In this document: positions 44,163 to 53,942 of the stretch, in pieces
Layout of the letters: the number at the start of each line of letters is the position of its first letter
Position numbering within the stretch: the stretch's first letter is position 1
From: Nitrospirota bacterium
GTDB taxonomy: Bacteria; Nitrospirota; Thermodesulfovibrionia; Thermodesulfovibrionales; JdFR-86
Reading direction: 5' to 3'
Assembly (NCBI GenBank): GCA_963721805.1
Contig: CAVRJY010000002.1
Span: 288,001-352,000, forward strand
Length of the DNA stretch: 64,000 nt
The notes under the pieces: model-generated
What the model was told of the DNA's origin: nothing
Seen by the model: only the letters and a program-made list of their open reading frames with translations
Database searches by the model: none
Position numbers and translations under genes: made by a program

Positions 44163-44234
44163 AGGCGCGTAGCTCAGTGGGAGAGCGCTACCTTGACACG
44201 GTAGAGGTCGGGGGTTCGATACCCCCCGCGCCTA
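44163..44234 (+). tRNA. tRNA-Val(GAC), left att of island 2; CCA not encoded
   Basis: AGGCGCG..CTACC-TTGACAC-GGTAG..GTTCGAT..CGCGCCTA. Confidence 0.95.
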
Positions 44235-44251
44235 TGTTTAAAATCAAGGGG

Positions 44252-45331
44252 TTAGCCATTAACGGCTAACCCTTTTTCATTGGGATTGTATAGTTTTTGT
44301 ATAGTAGGCCGCCCGTTCAAGGTATTGTCCAGCATATCAATAGCCTTGACCTTATGGGCCGGGGCGAGGTGGGAATAGCGGAGGGTCATGGTGAGGGTCT
44401 TATGTCCGAGCAGTTCCTTTACAGTCGTAAGGTCTACCCCGGACATAACGAGGTGTGATGCAAACGTATGCCTCAGGTCGTGAAAATGGAAGTCCTGAAT
44501 CTTTACCCGCTTTAAAGCCGTCTGAAAACTCCTCTTTACCGCCTGATAGGGTTTCCCGGTGTTAGGGTCGTAAAACACATAAGGAACGTCTAACCGCCTT
44601 GTGAGGCCCTGTAGCGTTGCACGGAGAGTGTCGGTTATCGGTATCTCCCGGCGATCCCCGTTTTTGGTTACATCCAGAAGAATAAACCCATGCCTGAGGT
44701 CTACCCTGTCCCATGTGAGCGAAAGGATTTCTCCGCGCCTCATGCCCGTGTTCAAGGCGGTAATGACTATCGGTTGAACATGAACGCTACATGCGCTTAT
44801 AAGCTCCCGGCATTCCTCTACCGATAGATACCTTAGCCGTCTGCTATCATCTCTGAGGAGCTTCACCTTGCGAATGCGCTTCAAGGTCTCGGCTTCAACC
44901 ATCTCCCAATCAACCGCCTTGGAAAACATATGCTTTAGGACATTCAAGACCTTGTTGTTGCTCGATGCTTTAAGGCCCCGGTTGATATTGTCCGTCTGCA
45001 ACTGTTCAACAAGCGATGTGCTGAATCTTCTAAGAGGCAGATTCCCATAAGCCTTAATCAGTTGGCCTATGATGTATCCCTTGATTTTGGCTGACTTCTG
45101 CCTGCCTTGAATCCATGCGTTATACTTCTCGGCAAGTTCGCCAAAAGCATGTTTTGCTATCCTCTTTTCTTCCGGTTGATTGCCGTCCTTTATACCTTGT
45201 TTTCTCTTTAAAAGCAGGGTTTCTGCGTCCCGGACTTTTGGAGAGCCTGAGGACTCATAAACCGTTTTACCATCAAGCCCGGCATAGCGTACCCAGAGGA
45301 CATTGCCGCGCTTATAAATTCCCTTTGCCAC
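44252..45331 (-). CDS. Tyrosine integrase of island 2
   Basis: TGMRRGEI, TKNG, HDLRHTFAS, LGHKTLTMTLRY. Confidence 0.96.
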   Translation of the reverse strand: MAKGIYKRGNVLWVRYAGLDGKTVYESSGSPKVRDAETLLLKRKQGIKDGNQPEEKRIAKHAFGELAEKYNAWIQGRQKSAKIKGYIIGQLIKAYGNLPLRRFSTSLVEQLQTDNINRGLKASSNNKVLNVLKHMFSKAVDWEMVEAETLKRIRKVKLLRDDSRRLRYLSVEECRELISACSVHVQPIVITALNTGMRRGEILSLTWDRVDLRHGFILLDVTKNGDRREIPITDTLRATLQGLTRRLDVPYVFYDPNTGKPYQAVKRSFQTALKRVKIQDFHFHDLRHTFASHLVMSGVDLTTVKELLGHKTLTMTLRYSHLAPAHKVKAIDMLDNTLNGRPTIQKLYNPNEKGLAVNG

Positions 45332-45530
45332 CTTTTACCTTCCTTTCCTTTTCTTTTTCGCGTTCGATGTAGTCAAGCAAAAGACATAAAGTATCGCTCG
45401 GTGTCTTCACCCCCTTTTCAAGCATCCAGACGTAATTGCCAGTTACGCCTATCCGCGCCGCAAAATCTACTTGCGAGAGCCTAAGCCCTTTTCTTAGTGA
45501 TTTAATCTCTTCTGGCTTCCACGTTTCCAT
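45312..45530 (-). CDS. XRE-family HTH protein
   Basis: IKSLRKGLRLSQVDFAARIGV..VWMLEKG. Confidence 0.88.
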   Translation of the reverse strand: METWKPEEIKSLRKGLRLSQVDFAARIGVTGNYVWMLEKGVKTPSDTLCLLLDYIEREKEKERKVKGGKGNL

Positions 45531-45640
45531 TGCCTTAGATTATACTCTAACTGAGTTAGAAAAGCAAATAGTATACAATTCACTATACAGGCCCTTGTAA
45601 CATGTTGATATTACAATTGTTTTCAGGGCTATCACTTCCT

Positions 45641-45928
45641 TTATACAGTAGTGGCCGGTATCTTGTAGCCGGACATCCATTTATCAATATCCTTACGGCT
45701 GAATCGTAACTGGCCCTTTATCTTGTAATGCGGTATCTCCTTGAATTGGACATGCTCATAAATCCACTTCTTTGAAACCTTGAGATACTCAGCAAGGCCC
45801 CGGACATCGAATATTGTATCCCCGGCCTCGTTCACGCCATTGCGGACAAGCGCGGGTCTAAGAATTTCGGCAACCCTTGAGGCTATGGCTTCAATGTCCT
45901 GAGGTTCAAGCTCAGTCTTCACATTCAC
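45641..45928 (-). CDS. Excisionase-family HTH protein
   Basis: FDVRGLAEYLKVSKKWIY..IPHYKI..LRFSRKDIDKW. Confidence 0.9.
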   Translation of the reverse strand: MNVKTELEPQDIEAIASRVAEILRPALVRNGVNEAGDTIFDVRGLAEYLKVSKKWIYEHVQFKEIPHYKIKGQLRFSRKDIDKWMSGYKIPATTV

Positions 45929-46118
45929 TTGGATGCGTCCCCTCTTTGCTCACAAGAACACCTGCCCACGGTTTACCCGGAGGCATGGCTGTGACAGTCA
46001 CATACTTTTGTTTTTCGCCTCCATCGTAAGAGCCAAAATAGCGAGTAATCCTCAAATACATTAGCTCGCCGCCGATGTTGCCTTCAAGCGCTCTTAATCT
46101 TCTCTGTATACCCCTCAT
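45912..46118 (-). CDS. Small hypothetical protein (MRGIQRRL paralog 3)
   Basis: N-terminal motif shared with two upstream ORFs. Confidence 0.7.
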   Translation of the reverse strand: MRGIQRRLRALEGNIGGELMYLRITRYFGSYDGGEKQKYVTVTAMPPGKPWAGVLVSKEGTHPSECED

Positions 46119-46123
46119 TTGAT

Positions 46124-46345
46124 TTAACATTTAAAGCTCTCAAACTCAGATTCGTTGACTATTTCAGTTCTGCCATTGCTGATAATAAGAAACTTCTTAA
46201 TCACCTCATTTGGTATTTCTTGATCTGTGGAATCTTCATTAACTCTGGCACCTCTACGAACTATGGTTCTTACTAAACATATTTTGTATTTCTTGATACC
46301 CGTTCGCTTCTCAAGCTCTTTTAATCGTTTTTCGATGCTTCTCAT
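46124..46345 (-). CDS. Small hypothetical protein (MRSIEKRL paralog 2)
   Basis: Shared motif; ATGA coupling. Confidence 0.75.
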   Translation of the reverse strand: MRSIEKRLKELEKRTGIKKYKICLVRTIVRRGARVNEDSTDQEIPNEVIKKFLIISNGRTEIVNESEFESFKC

Positions 46346-46566
46346 TTGCTGTCACCTTTAGTATCCTGAAACTCAGTTTCACTGATTTGTTCACCCCTAC
46401 CTTTGCGGAAAACATACTCTTTCACAATATGTTCACTCACTTGCAAGGGTTGTCCTGCTGATCTTGCACCTCCACGTACGATTTCAAGCTCTAAAGTGAG
46501 CGTGTACTCCTTGCCGACACCTAAATGCTCCTCAACCTTTTTAAGCCGCTTTTGTATACCCCTCAT
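46342..46566 (-). CDS. Small hypothetical protein (MRGIQKRL paralog 1)
   Basis: Shared motif; ATGA coupling. Confidence 0.75.
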   Translation of the reverse strand: MRGIQKRLKKVEEHLGVGKEYTLTLELEIVRGGARSAGQPLQVSEHIVKEYVFRKGRGEQISETEFQDTKGDSK

Positions 46567-46937
46567 TTGCTTACCCCCTTTTCCAGCTTTAACAGCCGCT
46601 CCTCTATGTCCTCAAGCTCTTTCAGCTTCAAGGTGTTGTCGAGGATCAGCGCTATGGTCTTCAGCCGTATGCTCTCGTTCTCCGTCCCCCTGAGCAATTC
46701 TCCCAGCTTGAGCACGGCATCAGAGGACAGGCCCTTTAGCTCTTTCAGCGCGGTCTCTATTAGGTCGTTCTGTTGGGCGATAAACTCACGCCTGAAAAAG
46801 TCATCCTTCATCCAGTCATAGAAAAGGGTTTTGGAGATACCAGCCTGCTTAACCCCCTCGGTAATAGTCCGGGCAGAAATGATTGCCGGGATGCACTTTT
46901 TCTGCTTGGGAGTCAGGTTTTGTTCAGTTCCGTCCAT
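46563..46937 (-). CDS. HTH protein resembling phage small-terminase N-termini
   Basis: LTPKQKKCI..TITEG..AGISKTLFYDWMKDDFF; GGAGG RBS. Confidence 0.7.
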   Translation of the reverse strand: MDGTEQNLTPKQKKCIPAIISARTITEGVKQAGISKTLFYDWMKDDFFRREFIAQQNDLIETALKELKGLSSDAVLKLGELLRGTENESIRLKTIALILDNTLKLKELEDIEERLLKLEKGVSK

Positions 46938-47313
46938 TATTGGCCTCCATGGGGTAAGGATTCGTCATATCACATAGCTGCCGTGTATCGACAACCTTTG
47001 AGCCGGGGAATGCCGTCTTGGTCGCGTGTACGGCCCTCAGAGCCTCTTTTGACAGCCCCTTGAGCCTCTGCACCTCAGCCGCCGTATATATCGGGTCATC
47101 GATGTCACCAGACGCCATGAGCGCAACAGCCGCCCGGTCATCAGGCACATGCCATAGGTAATCATCAAACAGGGACGAGTATATCCGCCATGCGCCGCGC
47201 TCCGGTCTTGTCGACGTTGTCAATGCTTTTTGTGCTTTGTGAATATCAACAACAGGGGGAATTGCCTCTGTTGGTTTAAGTTCTCTGTTAAGGTATTTCT
47301 CTGCTAATCTCAT
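46924..47313 (-). CDS. Hypothetical protein downstream of primase
   Basis: AGGAG RBS; 129-aa ORF. Confidence 0.7.
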   Translation of the reverse strand: MRLAEKYLNRELKPTEAIPPVVDIHKAQKALTTSTRPERGAWRIYSSLFDDYLWHVPDDRAAVALMASGDIDDPIYTAAEVQRLKGLSKEALRAVHATKTAFPGSKVVDTRQLCDMTNPYPMEANNGRN

Positions 47314-47332
47314 TTTCTAACTCCTAAGATTT

Positions 47333-47389
47333 CATTGACAGCATTGACAACCCCCCATGCCTTAATTAGCTCTGTCAATGTTGTCAATG
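47333..47389. repeat. Iteron-like inverted repeats, candidate origin of island 2
   Basis: CATTGACA-g-CATTGACA, 23 nt, TGTCAATG-t-TGTCAATG. Confidence 0.7.
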
Positions 47390-49786
47390 GTTTTCCTGAT
47401 TTCTGTATTGAGGATTCACAGCATATGCAGCCCCATCAAGAAGCGCGATATAGCTGCGCTCTGTAAGCACCTTCAATCCGGGGTCTACAGCATCCATTGT
47501 TTTGAGTGCGTTTTTATGCCGCATGACATCCCGGCCAGTGAAGCGCTCCGGCTTGTGGCGGTCTATGTATTCCAGAATCAGCCGGGCTGATTCAATGCGC
47601 GGGTCTTCGCCCATGAACCCGAAGACAGCAAGGGCATGAGCCGCGTAATAGCTTGCTATCGAAGTAGCCGCATGTACTGTTTCGGCCTCTATGGGTAAGG
47701 TTGCCCCGCTTTGCCCGTGAATTGCGAAATGCAAAAGCGCCGCTATCCTTGCCGCCGCACCCGGCAGTTTCGAGCCCCATTCCTTAATGCCCTCCATGTC
47801 GCCGCCCTCTTTAAGATCGGCTTCAGCGTCATGGTAAAACTCGGCCCATGCTTCAAGTGCTGATGGGGTTAAATTGAGGTCACAGTTCATAGGGGGTATG
47901 TCCATCAAATCCCAGAGGTGCGCGCGGTATCGGGCGGCTATTTCCGGTGCTATGGGGGTCGTTTGCAGCTTGCGGTGTCCGATGCGGCCCCCATTCATCG
48001 AAAACAAGAACCGTGCGAGGAGTCCGCGTCCTTTGAATTGTCTGTTCTCGCCTATCTCGCGGATTACATCACTCTGGACAGACACGCAAAGGGTTAGCGC
48101 CGGAGCCTCCATATAGCAGGCACCTCGGCTCATTCTGTGCGCGCTCCATGAGTCTCCGGCGTGGGCTTTCAGGAGTATGTCGAAGTTTGCGCCGCCCTTG
48201 CTGTAGAGCCCGGCCATGATTCCGAATATCCCGCCCTCCGCGCTGATAATACTCATGCGTTCCCCGTGGACTGTCATCGTATCGCCTAATTTCTCAGGTG
48301 TTACGTCATCCATTATGAATAGGGGGTATGGAGGGACAGGGTTATCCGTAATCTCCTTCTGTATATCGGCAATCTCTCGTATCAGTCGCTCACGGTCATT
48401 AAGCTCCTTTGCTTTAGATGCCTCTTTTTCCTTTGCCCCCAACTGAGCTTGCCGCACTTTATCTGCCGCTATTGCCTCGCAGATTACGGCCTTCATGCGC
48501 TCGGCTTTATCGTTCTGGTAATCGTATAAGGGGCGGGTCATAACGGATAACGTGGAACTCTTGCGCTCGCCGCTATCGAGGATCGGACAGACATAGATGG
48601 ATAGGGGCTCGCGGTGTGAGGCAAGCGACACCCCGGCCTTGCGTTGCATGGCTGTTGCTAGTGCCGCAAGATACACCCCTGCCGGGAATCCCGCATCTAC
48701 CTGATAGACCTCTGTGACGGCTTTAACCATTTCGCGGCCTATTCCCGGTAACACATCAACTGGAAACTGAGGAAGGTTAGTAAGGCTGTTAAGCGGAATG
48801 ATCGAAGGCCATTCAGCAGAAGCAACGTTTGCAATGTTGCTGGTTACAGCTTTTGCCGCCTTGATACAGTGCTGGACAGCTTCTATGCCCTCTAATTGGT
48901 GAAGATCATTAAAGTCGGTGGGGCCTTTCTTTTCAGCCTTAAACTTAGCAATCTCATTCTCAGACAAATTGAACTCCGGGACTGCAAGGAGCGCCCCGGC
49001 CTCTCGCGCCGCCTCAGTCGCGTTCGTAATGCCGGGGTTTCCGTCTGTCCATTGGTCATTATCGGAACAGACTATCAGACCCGATCCGGTTTCTTCTCGC
49101 GAAGTAGCTTTGTTACTGCGCCGCAGATTTCCGGCATCAAAAGCAACCACTATGGAATGCCCTGTGGCTTCATGCAGGCTTGCCCCTGTAGCGTATCCCT
49201 CGCATATCAGGATAGGGCCTGTCTTGTCTCCGGGTATCCGGCAGAAGTGTCCGACCTTAGCAGTTCCGGTTTTGAACTTCTTGCTTCCATCCCCCGAAAT
49301 GAACTGTAGGCCATGAAGCACCCCGGCGAAGTCCTGTACCGGAATAATGAGAGCGTCCCCTGATTGCTTTATTGCGAAAGGTTTAATCCCTTTGACAGTT
49401 AGATACTGATGTCTCTCATCAGCCTTCAGGCCCTTATCCCAAATTGCTTTAGACTTGGTTCTGCACTCTTCACGTCCCCGCGCCTGCTCCTCGTCGGCCT
49501 GTTTACGGATTCGCTCCATAGTGGCCTTGTATCGTGCGCGCTCTTCTACTGTCATGCTCTGGCTATCTCTTGAGCGCCACTTCTCCTTTATCTGCCGTTT
49601 GTGGCATCCAAAGGCCCCTGCGGCAAAATCTTCGGCTTCATGCAACACATACCAGCCGTTCTTCTTGTGCGGCTTATCTCCGTCTACATGGAAGCGGTGG
49701 AGCTTCCCGTTTGCTATGACTTGCTCATGTGGTTCGATTCCGGCACTTGCAAGTGCTTGTCTAAATTTATCGGTGCTGGTATCCAC
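47384..49786 (-). CDS. Primase (TraC/P4-type Toprim) fused to DUF3987/YfjI-like ATPase
   Basis: GGAGG RBS and GTG; ICEGYATG, AFDAGNL, DND, TDFNDL; SGERKS, DVTPEKL, GLLARFL. Confidence 0.9.
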   Translation of the reverse strand: MDTSTDKFRQALASAGIEPHEQVIANGKLHRFHVDGDKPHKKNGWYVLHEAEDFAAGAFGCHKRQIKEKWRSRDSQSMTVEERARYKATMERIRKQADEEQARGREECRTKSKAIWDKGLKADERHQYLTVKGIKPFAIKQSGDALIIPVQDFAGVLHGLQFISGDGSKKFKTGTAKVGHFCRIPGDKTGPILICEGYATGASLHEATGHSIVVAFDAGNLRRSNKATSREETGSGLIVCSDNDQWTDGNPGITNATEAAREAGALLAVPEFNLSENEIAKFKAEKKGPTDFNDLHQLEGIEAVQHCIKAAKAVTSNIANVASAEWPSIIPLNSLTNLPQFPVDVLPGIGREMVKAVTEVYQVDAGFPAGVYLAALATAMQRKAGVSLASHREPLSIYVCPILDSGERKSSTLSVMTRPLYDYQNDKAERMKAVICEAIAADKVRQAQLGAKEKEASKAKELNDRERLIREIADIQKEITDNPVPPYPLFIMDDVTPEKLGDTMTVHGERMSIISAEGGIFGIMAGLYSKGGANFDILLKAHAGDSWSAHRMSRGACYMEAPALTLCVSVQSDVIREIGENRQFKGRGLLARFLFSMNGGRIGHRKLQTTPIAPEIAARYRAHLWDLMDIPPMNCDLNLTPSALEAWAEFYHDAEADLKEGGDMEGIKEWGSKLPGAAARIAALLHFAIHGQSGATLPIEAETVHAATSIASYYAAHALAVFGFMGEDPRIESARLILEYIDRHKPERFTGRDVMRHKNALKTMDAVDPGLKVLTERSYIALLDGAAYAVNPQYRNQENH

Positions 49787-49891
49787 GTTATACCCCCTCC
49801 AGCTTGAATACTCTGAAGAGAACGTGAACAATTGATTCTGGCAGCAACCCCCAACAAGCGAGGCCGACAATGATAACCTTCAATGTTGCTC

Positions 49892-50137
49892 TCAACCCTT
49901 AACCCTCTCGCGGGCAATACCGACCGCACTTCTTAGTGATTCAAAAGCCATAAGGTACGACTGAACGGGGACATGGGCATTTGCAAAGAAGCTTTCCATT
50001 GCTGCATTTAGCCCGCCCCCGGAAAGCTCAATCTTAATTGTTCCCCCATCGGATACAGCGCGGAAACTAAACCCCATTGCTATTAGGAATGCTGCCAGTT
50101 GGTTACTTGTGGTAAGTACACTCTCGGCCTTCTTCAC
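49892..50137 (-). CDS. Small hypothetical protein, first gene of the primase operon
   Basis: AGGAGG RBS and GTG; LTTSNQLAAFLIAMG. Confidence 0.75.
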   Translation of the reverse strand: MKKAESVLTTSNQLAAFLIAMGFSFRAVSDGGTIKIELSGGGLNAAMESFFANAHVPVQSYLMAFESLRSAVGIARERVKG

Positions 50138-50168
50138 GGGGCCTCCTTTCTTTTCTTGCCCCATGAAA

Positions 50169-50185
50169 TGCAATGCTTGTGCCAG
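50169..50185 (-). promoter_or_regulatory. sigma54 (-24/-12) promoter
   Basis: Minus strand CTGGCACAAGCATTGCA matches TGGCAC-N5-TTGCW. Confidence 0.88.
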
Positions 50186-50200
50186 ATTTGAGCCGTGAGT

Positions 50201-50213
50201 TAACCTATTGATA
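50201..50213 (-). promoter_or_regulatory. IHF binding site
   Basis: TATCAATAGGTTA matches WATCAANNNNTTR, just upstream of the -24 box. Confidence 0.75.
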
Positions 50214-50321
50214 ACAAAGCAAAACAAGTGATTTGAATACCCTTGTTTGACATGCAAATCAATATTAATTATCATAAGTAATAATCAAAACTGAAACTGA
50301 ACAAGAAAAGGAGCCGCTCAA

Positions 50322-51722
50322 ATGTCTGACTTGCCCACCATTCTTAAAATGATGGAGCATCGTCCTACCCCAAACCCTAATGATTTCAACGACCCGGAAA
50401 TATGGAAGAGTGTGTGGGCTGAGCATTTAAGTGAAGAATCAGCGACAAGAAGGTTTAATGAACTCACTGCCGGTCTAAATGCCTACAGGGGCACTATTCC
50501 TGCTGATGACATTGATGGTAGTTTTACTTCCTATTTTATGCGTGCCAGCCAAGAGTTAGATAGGGAAACCAATTGGGACAACTTTAAGAAATTTAAGTTT
50601 AAAAAAAGAACCACCTCGATTGCCAACGCGGCACTTCTAATAGAGGGCATACATGATTTGGTCTTGATTGGGTTATTAGAGAATGCGCGCCACTATGAAA
50701 GTCTGAGGTATATAGCAGCGCATTATAATCCATTTGTTAATGACATACAGCTTAAAGCGGAATTAAACGCCCCTCTGCTAATCACAGGGAATTCAGGTAC
50801 AGGAAAAGAAGCTATGGCATATTGCATCCATATGATAAGTGGTAGGCGTAAGGAGCCATTCAAAAGCATCGACTGTTCAGCATTTTCAGGTGATTTAATA
50901 GCCTCGGAATTATTCGGCACAGTAAAAGGGGCCTTTACTGGTGCAATAGATAAACCCGGACTTCTTGAGTCAGCGAATGGCGGGACAGTATTTCTTGACG
51001 AAATAGCAAATATGCCAAAGCCTCAACAGGCCATGTTACTAAGGGTTATTGAATCTGGGAAGCTTAGGCGTGTTGGGGCGAATGAGGACATAAAGAAGAA
51101 GCTTGACGTTAGATACATTGCGGCAGTACAGCCGAGCAAAGAAAACGAGTTGCTGCCTGATTTGCTTTATAGATTGACCTATCCGTTTTGTATAAGGCTT
51201 CCATCGCTGAAGGAACGGTTTGCAGCATTAGATGACGACCAACAAAAAAGGATAATTAATCATTCATTAAAGCGTCTGACAAGGAGAGAATCGAGCATCC
51301 CATCCGAGGTTGCTTTTACTGTGTCTGCAATTAACCGACTTGTTGCACACGACTATCCCGGCAACTATCGAGAGCTTGAAAACACATTGCTCATAGCAAT
51401 AATAAACGCTCAGAATAAACATAGCTATAACGCTAAGAAACAGTTACGCATTGACACAGAACACCTTCCTACTATAGCGCAACACACAACAGCTAACCCG
51501 GCAGAAAACCTGATAGATATTAGCTCTTGGTCGCTTATGGATTTGGCCATCCCTGATAAAAAGCTCGCCCCGTTCCTCGCGGAGCGAGTTATGGGAATAT
51601 ATAAGGACGGCAGTACTCCAAGCTATGAGCTTTCAAAAGAGGGGGGCAATGATGCGAAATTCGGACGGCACTTTGAGAAAATGGTAGGGGTAAGCCTAAC
51701 GGAATTTAAACGCAACATGTAG
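50322..51722 (+). CDS. sigma54-dependent enhancer-binding protein (AAA+)
   Basis: GNSGTGKE, SELFGTVKGAFTGA, FLDEI, LLRVIE, YPGNYRELEN; N-terminal domain not recognised. Confidence 0.93.
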   Translation: MSDLPTILKMMEHRPTPNPNDFNDPEIWKSVWAEHLSEESATRRFNELTAGLNAYRGTIPADDIDGSFTSYFMRASQELDRETNWDNFKKFKFKKRTTSIANAALLIEGIHDLVLIGLLENARHYESLRYIAAHYNPFVNDIQLKAELNAPLLITGNSGTGKEAMAYCIHMISGRRKEPFKSIDCSAFSGDLIASELFGTVKGAFTGAIDKPGLLESANGGTVFLDEIANMPKPQQAMLLRVIESGKLRRVGANEDIKKKLDVRYIAAVQPSKENELLPDLLYRLTYPFCIRLPSLKERFAALDDDQQKRIINHSLKRLTRRESSIPSEVAFTVSAINRLVAHDYPGNYRELENTLLIAIINAQNKHSYNAKKQLRIDTEHLPTIAQHTTANPAENLIDISSWSLMDLAIPDKKLAPFLAERVMGIYKDGSTPSYELSKEGGNDAKFGRHFEKMVGVSLTEFKRNM

Positions 51723-51734
51723 AGTACGGTTAAA

Positions 51735-52097
51735 CTATTCTGGGCAGTCGTATGGTTCAAACGATCCTTCTTTGAGTTCGCCGGTTAGGTTCTCGATCAG
51801 ATACACTTTGGGTTTCTTATCTTGACCTACAGCTATGAATCCTCGGCAAAAGAAACTGCAAGGTAAATCGGTAGAAAAGCATATTTCTTTTTGTTTCGCC
51901 TGCAACAATTCAATTGGCCATTTATGACAATCATACTTGCCATATTTAGGGCAAATAAGCACTTCAAATTCGCCGCCGTAAATAATAGTTTTCCCCTCCA
52001 TTTTCCCTATCGCATCAAACAGCGAAGCAGCATAGGCATCATTAAATGTAATGGCTATCTGTAGTACGATTATGAATAAAAGAGTTTTTGCCATCAT
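51735..52097 (-). CDS. Exported Cys-rich hypothetical protein
   Basis: Signal peptide ending AYA-A; six Cys. Confidence 0.7.
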   Translation of the reverse strand: MMAKTLLFIIVLQIAITFNDAYAASLFDAIGKMEGKTIIYGGEFEVLICPKYGKYDCHKWPIELLQAKQKEICFSTDLPCSFFCRGFIAVGQDKKPKVYLIENLTGELKEGSFEPYDCPE

Positions 52098-52102
52098 CGA
52101 TT

Positions 52103-52717
52103 CTATTTGCCGACTGGCTCTCCCTTTACACGCCTTACCACATCACCATTTTGGGTAACATGCTCATAATCACTCTCCTTTAATTCTTTTCCAAGAAAAG
52201 GGATTGCACCGGCTACCAGATAAGGGAAAACGTCTCGCATTGAATCCCCAAATTGTTCATCGCTTCTAATGACAGTTTTCCATAATTCGCCTTCTTGTTT
52301 CTCAAGGTAGGTTTTTCTGTCAAAGGCATCAAATGATACATAATACAGCCCCGCGTTTATTCCCGTGACGCTCATGCTCTCAGTATTTCCAGCCGCTTTA
52401 TCTGTAACTGGGATTGTTACATTGCGTGTTTCAGCAGAATACGATAAAACGCTTCCATACGAAACGAGAATTAATATGTCGGCTTTATCTGGATTCGCGG
52501 CTGGTTCAAATCCGGCGAGTTTAAGCCCTCTATCTAAATATGCTCTGTACTCCTTAAACTCTAGCGACGATTCTTTCACCCATGGCTGCGCCGGGCGAAG
52601 CTCATACTTCTTCATAGAATCGTCGGCCATCATCGCATCGATCTTAACACTATAATGCGATGGGCAACCAGCGAGAGCTATCACTATAAGCAGTCCTAAC
52701 ACTATCTTCTTTATCAT
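52103..52717 (-). CDS. Lipoprotein (DUF4136-like)
   Basis: GAGG RBS; LAGC lipobox; ADILILVSYG, LWKT. Confidence 0.75.
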   Translation of the reverse strand: MIKKIVLGLLIVIALAGCPSHYSVKIDAMMADDSMKKYELRPAQPWVKESSLEFKEYRAYLDRGLKLAGFEPAANPDKADILILVSYGSVLSYSAETRNVTIPVTDKAAGNTESMSVTGINAGLYYVSFDAFDRKTYLEKQEGELWKTVIRSDEQFGDSMRDVFPYLVAGAIPFLGKELKESDYEHVTQNGDVVRRVKGEPVGK

Positions 52718-52863
52718 CCTCTCCCCCTCAATAAAGTTGTATTGCAATAGCTTAGCCCCCAACTGATCTAAAGTCAATATAACAACAAGGAAACTTCGTG
52801 ACATTTACCTTAAAACTCTTTATACTTCAAGTTATCAATAGAATCTCAAACGGGGGTAGCCAT

Positions 52864-53169
52864 ATGAAAAGAATAATGCTCTGTCTCGTTATACTCTGTG
52901 CGTTTAGCGGTATCGCTCTTGCCGGGGATGTCAACGTGAACGGCTACTGGCGGGATTCAAACCACGATGGGGTTAAGGATACCTATGTCAGCCCCTATAC
53001 ACGCACCGCGCCTGATGATAGCCGCCTGAATAACTATAGCACTCAAGGGAATACCAACCCTTACACCGGACGGCAGGGAACCGAAAGCCCATACAGCAAT
53101 CCCAGCACCCCGCTTGGCGGCTCGAACTATGGGAGTGGCAGCAATGGAAAATCGCTCTTAGGACAGTAA
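52864..53169 (+). CDS. Small exported protein of a phage-associated type
   Basis: Signal peptide; VNGYWR..YVSPYTRTAPD..NNYSTQGNTNPYTG. Confidence 0.8.
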   Translation: MKRIMLCLVILCAFSGIALAGDVNVNGYWRDSNHDGVKDTYVSPYTRTAPDDSRLNNYSTQGNTNPYTGRQGTESPYSNPSTPLGGSNYGSGSNGKSLLGQ

Positions 53170-53207
53170 GCGCTGGGGCATCGTGTGGCGTGGAAAGAAA
53201 TCAACGA

Positions 53208-53678
53208 ATGAAAACATTAAGCCTTAAAACTAAAAAAGTGATAGCCCGCGAAGGATTGATACTTTTGGGCATTTTGATACTGATTGCGGCAGCGATAAGC
53301 TTCGAATTGATTAACGCAGCCTATTACAAGCATATGACATCAATATTTATAGCCGAGCGTGGCCCATGGAAGGATTACGCTCCTACTAATCCGGATATTG
53401 TCCCGACTTCTGTTCTTCCTGATGAGGTTGTAGCAAAAGAGAGGCGTAGGCTAATTAATGCAGGATTCACACCACAAGAAATAGCTCAATACCAGAGGGT
53501 AGAGCCACCTTCTATATTTAAAACTGGAATAAATCCTCAGGATACCAAAGTAGCGAAGTTTTTTATAATAGCTGCGTATTGCTTATATTTATTTGTCAGA
53601 ATATTTATTGTGGCAATTGGCTACTCCATTAAGTTTACCAAGTGGGCTCGCGCAATCCTCAAACAACAGGAGCCATAA
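53208..53678 (+). CDS. Two-TM membrane protein
   Basis: Hydrophobic helices near both termini. Confidence 0.7.
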   Translation: MKTLSLKTKKVIAREGLILLGILILIAAAISFELINAAYYKHMTSIFIAERGPWKDYAPTNPDIVPTSVLPDEVVAKERRRLINAGFTPQEIAQYQRVEPPSIFKTGINPQDTKVAKFFIIAAYCLYLFVRIFIVAIGYSIKFTKWARAILKQQEP

Positions 53679-53897
53679 AATCATTTCCACTTATCTATTC
53701 ACTTCGCATCCTCTATTGTCTGCCATTGCATATTCTCAGGCTAATCAGGGCAGCGTCACTGTATAGTTTTTGTATAGTGAATGCTCGGTACGATAGGGCA
53801 CAATAGGGGAAAGCCGAAGGGCTTCCCCTGATGCAAAGGGCACGATTTAGCACGAAAAAGCACGATCTGCTAAACCCGGAGAGCAATAGGCATTGCA

Positions 53898-53942
53898 TTG
53901 ACACGGTAGAGGTCAGGGGTTCGATACCCCTCGCGCCTACCA
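53898..53942 (+). repeat. Right att of island 2: displaced 3' half of tRNA-Val including CCA
   Basis: TTGACACGGTAGAGGTCAGGGGTTCGATACCCCTCGCGCCTACCA, followed by a terminator hairpin. Confidence 0.95.

Follow-up and report, generated by a model that had tools for sequence, protein, structure and literature searches.

An integrative island of a Nitrospirota bacterium carries, between its replication operon and a divergent gene for an AAA+ bacterial enhancer-binding protein (bEBP), a -24/-12 box and a consensus IHF site, and these parts and their geometry are conserved in related loci. Promoters of the sigma54 class are silent until a bEBP activates them, often with looping of the DNA by IHF. 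The explanation that we consider best, with a confidence somewhat above even, is a default-off sigma54 promoter that would be opened by the island's own bEBP with the help of IHF looping. The arrangement is real, conserved and apparently undescribed, and it is made of known kinds of parts. In what follows, positions refer to the window, i.e., the whole stretch of 64,000 nucleotides (64 kb) that was analysed.

Gene Content of the Island

Taking the tRNA-Val cores as bounds, the element spans 44193-53939 (~9.7 kb), and its GC content is 47%, against ~60% in the host contigs. The integration target is a tRNA-Val(GAC) gene (44163..44234, plus strand; ARAGORN), whose final 42 bp (44193-44234) constitute the left att core; the right core is a 3' copy of tRNA-Val (53898..53939, plus strand), and the two cores, both found by repeat search, are identical at 40 of 42 bp. 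The minus strand codes for a tyrosine integrase of 359 aa (44252..45331; PF00589, E 1.7e-31; phrog_1) and for a 72-aa Xre/HTH_3 protein (45312..45530; Pfam profile match). Immediately 5' of xre, a TTGCTT-17-TATAAT sequence and a palindrome were read by eye, outside the eight sites of the sigma70 scan described below, and xre and int are probably expressed separately, from this sigma70 promoter of their own. Repeats of TGTATAGT at both ends of the element (44287-44305 and 53760-53778) resemble the arm sites of integrases, and a third pair similar to TGTATAGT is found at 45570-45590 in the xre promoter region, with an IHF site next to it (45598-45610). Directly upstream of the island, a second low-GC element (13410-44087, 30.6 kb, with a 55-bp repeat) is inserted in tRNA-Leu(TAA); it codes near its right end for a Replic_Relax protein, a TraG/VirD4-like ATPase and a PIN toxin-antitoxin pair, and is possibly conjugative or mobilisable.

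Eight genes run on the minus strand from 50137 to 45641, the final six of them overlapping, with xre and the integrase next. Their order is DUF5659-like, primase-helicase, 129-aa ORF, TerS-like, three small ORFs and HTH_17 excisionase-like. The first gene (49892..50137, 81 aa) codes for a distant DUF5659-like homologue, as judged by hhalign against the first genes of related loci (70.5%, E 3.9e-5, 72 columns), several of which match PF18903; a search with the gene itself retrieved one relative only, and a literature search for DUF5659 found no paper. The primase-helicase (47384..49786; Toprim_3 and DUF3987 in Pfam and PHROG) likely starts at GTG 49786, preceded by GGAGGGGG, within an open frame that extends to 49870. 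Directly 3' of it are two inverted 17-bp arms, or iterons (47333..47389), 16/17 complementary and with 23 bp between them. Such arms after the primase resemble the PICI origins described in a figure legend (Fig. 2, PMC6092414), and by this analogy we infer a PICI-like origin here. The 129-aa ORF (46924..47313) has no family match in Pfam or PHROG, and a homologue stands after a related primase in locus L006. The following gene codes for a protein of 124 aa similar to terminase small subunits (TerS-like; 46563..46937), which matches phrog_2538 over 95 residues (E 3.7e-8) and four other TerS families, matches of a kind that HTH proteins can also yield; homologues occur in L129, L210, L238 and L245. 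The operon is completed by three overlapping ORFs of 72-74 aa (45912..46566), taken from the ORF list and without family match in Pfam or PHROG, and by the HTH_17 excisionase-like gene (45641..45928; PF12728, E 1.7e-12; TIGR01764 above cut-off), the final one of the predicted sigma54 operon. Beyond the divergent bEBP gene, four cargo ORFs (120, 233, 123, and 162 aa; 51735..53678) are without Pfam match, PHROG having been searched as well.

Among the 15 ORFs of the element, the PHROG search found no phage structural or lysis genes, and Pfam and PHROG gave no match to AlpA, MerR or capsid morphogenesis families, the HTH_17 and HTH_3 proteins being present; a capsid morphogenesis gene is also absent from 80 ORFs of the relatives. 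In PICIs such a gene is described as optional (type B lacks one component), and their size is put at ~9.5-15 kb, without structural or lysis genes. Of the features of PICIs, the 9.7-kb element has the integrase with att repeats, the primase with an iteron origin, the size and the lack of structural genes. Nevertheless, it is called PICI-like here, and not a PICI, because its gene order differs and its type of regulator appears to. The first-pass annotation had spoken of a phage satellite, and the gene content fits this name; on the other hand, the gene order is unlike that of PICIs, and some relatives are without primase or resemble prophage early regions.

The Regulatory Region

The predicted sigma54 promoter (50169..50185, minus strand) reads CTGGCAC-AAGCA-TTGCA from 50185 to 50169, was recognised both by reading the sequence and with a leave-one-out matrix, has its invariant GG and GC 10 bases apart and would start transcription near 50158. 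The first gene of the operon begins 32 bp from it, at GTG 50137 behind AAAGGAGG. The pattern TGGCAC-N5-TTGC has its single strict match of the window here (0.18 expected), is found at least once in 16 of 100 window shuffles and has eight matches in the 2.78-Mb genome, including that of the element; because of these counts the match alone is modest evidence, and its position is what counts. An exact WATCAA-N4-TTR consensus for IHF (50201..50213, minus strand, ~-43 to -55) was found by pattern search and ends 16 bp before the TGG of the box. This pattern has seven matches in the window, versus 2.4 expected, and, given also the shuffle count of the box, the two matches at one locus are weak evidence. 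Both sites had been annotated at first pass, as a consensus box and an IHF consensus just upstream of it, and their coordinates proved correct.

The bEBP gene has a sigma70-type promoter, TTGACA-17-TATCAT (50247..50275, plus strand; score 11 of 12), the best of the eight sites that a scan of the element returned; as 14.5 sites are expected in shuffles, only its score and its place count. A 10-bp inverted repeat with a 13-bp spacer (50229..50261), which overlaps the -35 of this promoter, is a candidate enhancer or operator, and its sequence is not conserved across the family of related bEBPs.

Conservation of the Switch

The family was sought among 1.84 billion representatives, where many proteins match the bEBP beyond its AAA+ core. 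A search with an alignment of the C-terminal region provided the best 80 of 182 confirmed genome loci and the best 80 of 234 metagenome loci. The 71 strongest loci were used, of which 69 were matched and, together with that of the element, gave 46 clusters at 80% identity; after eight loci (fragments or non-members) had been set aside and clusters with <300 bp upstream dropped, 38 loci were left. In 35 of these 38 loci, a -24/-12 box of at least 10 bits points away from the bEBP gene, and one on the opposite strand is found in 4 of 38. Scoring used a leave-one-out matrix whose seed came from these same loci (<80% identity to each other), and per-locus shuffles have means of -1 to 5 bits, single shuffles reaching 14 bits; in L125 the pick of the matrix was replaced by a site chosen by eye, 78 bp nearer. 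The distance from box to bEBP ORF start is mostly 107-172 bp, across different phyla. As for controls, 0 of 17 host bEBP genes have such a box, a lenient comparison in view of their GC-richness, and bEBP loci of viral contigs have it facing away in 6 of 71 cases and toward the gene in 8 of 71. L207 is without box, that of L237 is weak, and L130 has neither box nor mobile gene. The one chromosomal member, L288 (11220-12917), lies among housekeeping genes, has neither GAFTGA nor box, and is possibly domesticated.

An IHF site with at most one mismatch is located 4-5 or 14-17 bp from the box in 17 of the 35 loci, versus 0.55 expected, the spacings having been chosen after looking; in a split-half test, 4.55 of 18 held-out loci had it, versus 0.2. 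The two spacings differ by one helical turn. The box is followed by replication genes from unrelated families (Prim-Pol, AAA_25, D5, DUF3987, DUF3854, CHC2); as this gene is swapped, the regulatory module is the constant part. In the 24 loci with at least 3 kb upstream, an integrase is present in 19, a replication gene in 17, a tRNA in 14, a DUF5659-like gene in 11 and a TerS-like gene in 5, according to profiles built from the same loci; among all 38 loci, one replication match is doubtful, that of L126, whose operon holds only the integrase. Judged by these genes, most of the long-context loci are tRNA-integrated islands. L232 and L251 have exonuclease, Sak4-like and ERCC4 genes, as in prophage early regions. 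There are also minimal loci (L126, L223, and L229), where the box leads to the integrase with no primase between, and in L222 (5523-7236) umuD- and umuC-like genes stand directly 3' of the bEBP gene, on the same strand.

A palindrome search of the family found no family-wide enhancer motif. A palindrome AGTATA-N6/7-TATACT is clear in ~8 of 35 loci (L210, L214, L232, L240, L246, L248, L251, and L254), where its right arm is the -10 of the bEBP promoter, and it is absent at the locus of the element; it is a candidate for both enhancer and autoregulation site. As regards the machinery required, the host has rpoN and four IHF/HU genes, and rpoN is present in 10 of the 11 host genomes tested, with no match in one MAG (G656). 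The conservation of the box, proposed at first pass as a check, has thus been found in related elements, and the conservation of box, orientation, distance and IHF phasing across the 38 loci strongly supports the sigma54 control that had been suggested for the replication operon. On these sequences, the sigma54 promoter is very likely real.

The Enhancer-Binding Protein and Its Family

The bEBP (466 aa; 50322..51722, plus strand; PF00158 and structure model) is composed of a helical N-domain (residues ~1-137), an AAA+ domain (138-365) and a helical C-terminal domain. It had been annotated as a GAFTGA-containing AAA+ protein, divergent from the primase operon and with an unrecognised N-terminus, and this description stands: PF00158 matches residues 138-286 with 149.5 bits, no Pfam family matches before residue 138, and GAFTGA occupies residues 203-208. 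None of the NCBIfam bEBP models reaches its cut-off on the protein. The model has a mean pLDDT of 84, with the AAA+ core and the C-terminal helices confident, and resembles solved bEBPs, among them NtrC1 (Foldseek E 2e-17; VIA Z 21.9, rmsd 2.7 over 241).

The Walker A (K162-E163), Walker B (D226-E227), and sensor II (R350) residues are present, as are R241, E244, D280 and R284. What the first-pass annotation had not described is that the RxDxxxR position reads L278-P-D280-L-L-Y-R284, the first Arg being replaced by L278, and that the switch Asn (PspF N64) is replaced by D184. The first Arg is present in 0 of 36 family members versus 16 of 16 host bEBPs; the switch Asn is kept in 35 of the 36 members, and Asp is also found there in 1 of 16 host bEBPs. 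Three residues after Walker B, 32 of 36 members have Lys, the host bEBPs Asp or Glu, and the copy of the element Asn. Since the closest relative, P0006, keeps both the switch Asn and this Lys, the copy of the element may be impaired or weaker. Otherwise, the Walker A Lys and the equivalents of D280, R284 and R350 are present in 36 of 36 members, and the Walker B DE in 35. The loss of the Arg is accompanied by fixed neighbouring changes (QP for TN, PD, and the Lys after Walker B), and it might be speculated that this Lys replaces the missing arginine finger. In PspF, R162 is reported as the catalytic finger: the R162A change lowers the rate from 39.5 to 0.18 per min and gives an unproductive protein, without remodelling, that still binds sigma54, and R162 variants were complemented in mixed oligomers (PMC3419264, excerpts). 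For NtrC1, the second Arg, R299 (equivalent to PspF R168), has been taken as the finger (PMC7175178, excerpts). It is this second Arg (R284) that is kept in the family, which, because of the missing first Arg, is filed here as a variant subfamily and not as canonical bEBPs.

The C-terminal domain has confident helices at 433-465, conserved in the family, and gave neither an HTH_8 (Fis) match in Pfam nor a sequence match in the PDB; an AraC-type HTH, suspected by eye, was supported by no search. The N-domain can be aligned over 34 members at low identity, and that of L122 is modelled as seven helices (pLDDT 89). No Pfam family matches it in more than 2 of the 34 members, the PDB gave no sequence match under E 0.03, the matches in the atlas were all <0.9, and the viral library gave none under E 1; the best structural match has a Z of 6.1 and an rmsd of 3.1 over 70 residues, and a search with the N-domain alone retrieved only the element's own protein. 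According to the models, it is a conserved helical fold without clear match among the structures compared. By analogy with PspA, which binds PspF, the product of the DUF5659-like first gene may bind the bEBP.

Family members share AxQP, PDLxxRLxYP, GNYRELE and the C-terminal domain, and Nitrospirota, Syntrophaceae, Deltaproteobacteria and Aminicenantes are among the names on their records. In the class of the host, a member is present in 6 of 390 genomes (eight candidates scored per genome). A quick tree built from 85 AAA+ domains has a branch (SH-aLRT 99) that separates 36 members from 16 host and 18 viral bEBPs; this separation is partly circular, as the defining motifs are inside the alignment. 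No member was found in the viral contigs scanned, where three pattern matches were due to chance, nor in the phage and plasmid records searched. Viral contigs (L007-L086) do carry bEBPs of the ordinary type, some of them short (250-360 aa), and PHROG 7998 is an unannotated phage family similar to bEBPs. A GAFTGA-like loop is present in 25 of the 38 loci and degenerate in 13. Intact loops go with stronger boxes (median 16.6 vs 12.7 bits, p 0.007, the loci not being independent), and 8 of the 13 members with degenerate loops keep the GG and GC of the box (Fisher p 0.26). In L125, L210, L229, L237 and L243, loop 1 reads like NYPGFH rather than GAFTGA, and such members occupy two separate places in the tree, which suggests a selected alternative loop.

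Proposed Mechanism and Alternative Explanations

In the mechanism that we propose, the island would be a tRNA-integrated PICI-like element with its lytic-side operon expressed from one sigma54 promoter. The sigma54-polymerase of the host would wait there as a closed complex, and for this reason the element would be silent by default without a repressor. The bEBP, made from its own sigma70 promoter, would bind an enhancer ~70-100 bp upstream, of speculative sequence, and this would be self-limiting by overlap with the bEBP promoter. Its N-terminal domain would hold it off until a signal, of speculative nature, allowed it to oligomerise; IHF would then bend the DNA and GAFTGA would open the promoter, leading to excision, replication from the iterons and packaging in helper capsids. 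Silence, looping, activation, excision and packaging are what we infer from bEBP and PICI biology. That the divergent bEBP is the cognate regulator of the box seems likely from the sequences, with good confidence. Direct activation by the bEBP is, for the family, probable; it is less sure because the subfamily is without the finger Arg of PspF, and the copy of the element also without the switch Asn and the candidate Lys. Of the earlier claim that the island's own bEBP activates the operon, the cognate relation is supported by linkage and by L288, which lost GAFTGA and box together, and working activation is uncertain in view of the missing R162 finger.

Several other explanations can be considered. 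That box and IHF site match by chance, in AT-rich DNA between genes, is hardly credible: the shuffles do yield boxes and the IHF consensus is common, but strand, distance and IHF phase are conserved in 35 of 38 loci, which comes close to refuting this idea. The host might also open the box with a bEBP of its own, the island protein being a passenger or controlling only itself. There are 17 or more other bEBPs in the host (18 other tblastn matches to the island's protein), and no shared enhancer was found; however, in most loci, across different phyla, the gene is divergent and 107-172 bp away from the box, and the family, set apart from host and viral bEBPs in the quick tree, travels with the island (6/390 genomes), so that such control is very unlikely. 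The main rival, though itself rather unlikely, is that the bEBP is poor as an ATPase and acts as a lock, which binds to the enhancer and to sigma54 without being able to open the complex by itself; it would be either a master repressor, in the place of Stl, or a half-activator that fires only when an AAA+ subunit of host or phage supplies the missing arginine. This would be in accordance with the family-wide loss of the R162 equivalent (0/36), with the binding of sigma54 by unproductive PspF R162A and its complementation in mixed oligomers (PMC3419264, excerpts), with the loss of GAFTGA in 13 of 38 members that mostly keep the box, and with the repression of mobile-element genes by a GAFTGA-less NtrC in Caulobacter (10.1101/2023.06.06.543975, excerpts). 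On the other hand, Walker A, Walker B, the R168 equivalent and sensor II hardly vary and two thirds of the members retain GAFTGA, none of which a pure repressor needs; the phasing of the IHF site implies that the DNA loops to the polymerase; and the Arg loss, with its fixed neighbouring changes, has the appearance of a rebuilt site.

The nature of the signal is a separate matter. Known bEBPs mostly read host signals, and it is a serious contender, though short of even, that the promoter is sigma54-dependent and activated by the protein while the N-domain reads the state of the host (stress, DNA damage or a metabolite) in what would be a general integrative element. The loci without primase (L126, L223, and L229), the TerS-like genes in just 5 of 24 long loci, the prophage-early-like genes of L232 and L251 and the umuDC-like genes of L222 favour this explanation; the TerS-like gene, iterons, PICI size and lack of structural genes of the element speak against it, as does the coupling of induction to the helper in both known PICI types (PMC6092414, excerpts). 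It bears on the signal alone and would fit the mechanism of the explanation considered best, and host state is at least as likely a signal as a helper phage, whose infection, according to the first-pass annotation, the N-domain may sense. More tentatively, and as a possibility clearly below even, the sigma54 closed complex could be a repressor-free lock, with a bEBP that has a new sensor domain and an incomplete ATPase site and that would fire only once a protein of the helper phage bound this sensor or completed the site; satellite-like islands of Nitrospirota and deltaproteobacterial lineages would then have, with the same tentativeness, a third coupling beside Stl de-repression and AlpA activation. 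A Mu-like head and tail cluster of the host was considered as helper, and nothing links it to the island. This cluster (L290, 78-14383; G000:C1, ~133-147 kb) contains Mu-like genes for terminase, portal, protease, head and tail, with the GC content of the host; no transposase or integrase was evident by eye in the preceding 20 kb, and it is a possible remnant or domesticated particle cluster.

Biological Significance

Described satellites and prophages stay quiet by means of repressors, or of small activators acting on housekeeping-type promoters. A switch of sigma54, bEBP and IHF, if true, would be off by default, leak-free, gated by ATP and tied to one sensor domain, and the recurrence of the layout in dozens of distantly related islands points to a way of turning on such elements that has not been described. 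It bears on how Gram-negative satellites sense their moment, a question left open in the parts of PMC6092414 consulted. The family would also be a natural subfamily of bEBPs lacking the arginine which, in work on PspF, was termed essential in all bEBPs, and its N-domain would be a new signalling domain, which could serve as an orthogonal sigma54 switch.

Comparison with Known Systems

The island resembles PICIs of the EcCICFT073 type and SaPIs, as described in excerpts of PMC6092414 and 10.1101/2022.09.14.508007, in its size of ~10 kb, its integrase at a tRNA, its excisionase-like HTH protein, primase-helicase, iteron origin and TerS-like gene, and its lack of structural genes. According to the same excerpts, Gram-negative PICIs are activated by AlpA and SaPIs repressed by Stl (PMC6092414; 10.1101/2022.09.14.508007); the island would share positive control, as proposed here, with the former and a divergent master regulator with the latter. 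Unlike both, it has for a regulator an AAA+ bEBP of 466 aa, which faces a sigma54 promoter accompanied by an IHF site. Gene order differs as well: it is described for PICIs as int - regulator - xis - pri - ori - terS, read away from int, whereas that of the island is bEBP / pri - ori - terS - xis - xre - int, read towards int, with the bEBP at the far end.

Among the nearest works in the literature searched is a study of RtcR and Gifsy-1 (PMC9879122). Another example is Htm (Gp204), an AAA+ protein that phage AV110 encodes and that has been compared to bEBPs; unlike the island's bEBP, it is without GAFTGA and without DNA-binding domain and acts broadly on the host; the excerpts of its description report no cognate sigma54 promoter on the phage (10.64898/2026.10.06.757011). 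The NtrC of Caulobacter, like the island's bEBP, controls genes of an excisable element, including the integrase, but it is encoded by the host, is without GAFTGA and represses sigma70 promoters (10.1101/2023.06.06.543975, excerpts). A survey of sigma54 regulons mentions, in the parts consulted, transposases and not an element-encoded bEBP switch (PMC12316311). No description of an element-encoded bEBP that drives its own element was found in the literature searched, most subscription journals lying outside it.

Finally, the arrangement resembles that of pspF-pspABCDE and other divergent bEBP loci, where the bEBP gene is divergent from a sigma54 operon and an IHF site lies between them. At the pspF locus, the enhancer overlaps the bEBP's own sigma70 promoter, and cooperation of PspF with IHF has reportedly been the subject of an earlier study. 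The AAA+ core of the island's protein is 33-38% identical to those of PspF and other bEBPs and has the same fold; in contrast to PspF, it is accompanied by an apparently new N-domain and a non-Fis C-terminal domain, and has LPDxxxR for RxDxxxR. Moreover, unlike that of the pspF locus, the switch of the island targets the life cycle of a mobile element. By analogy, it would work like pspF-pspA grafted onto a PICI-like replicon.
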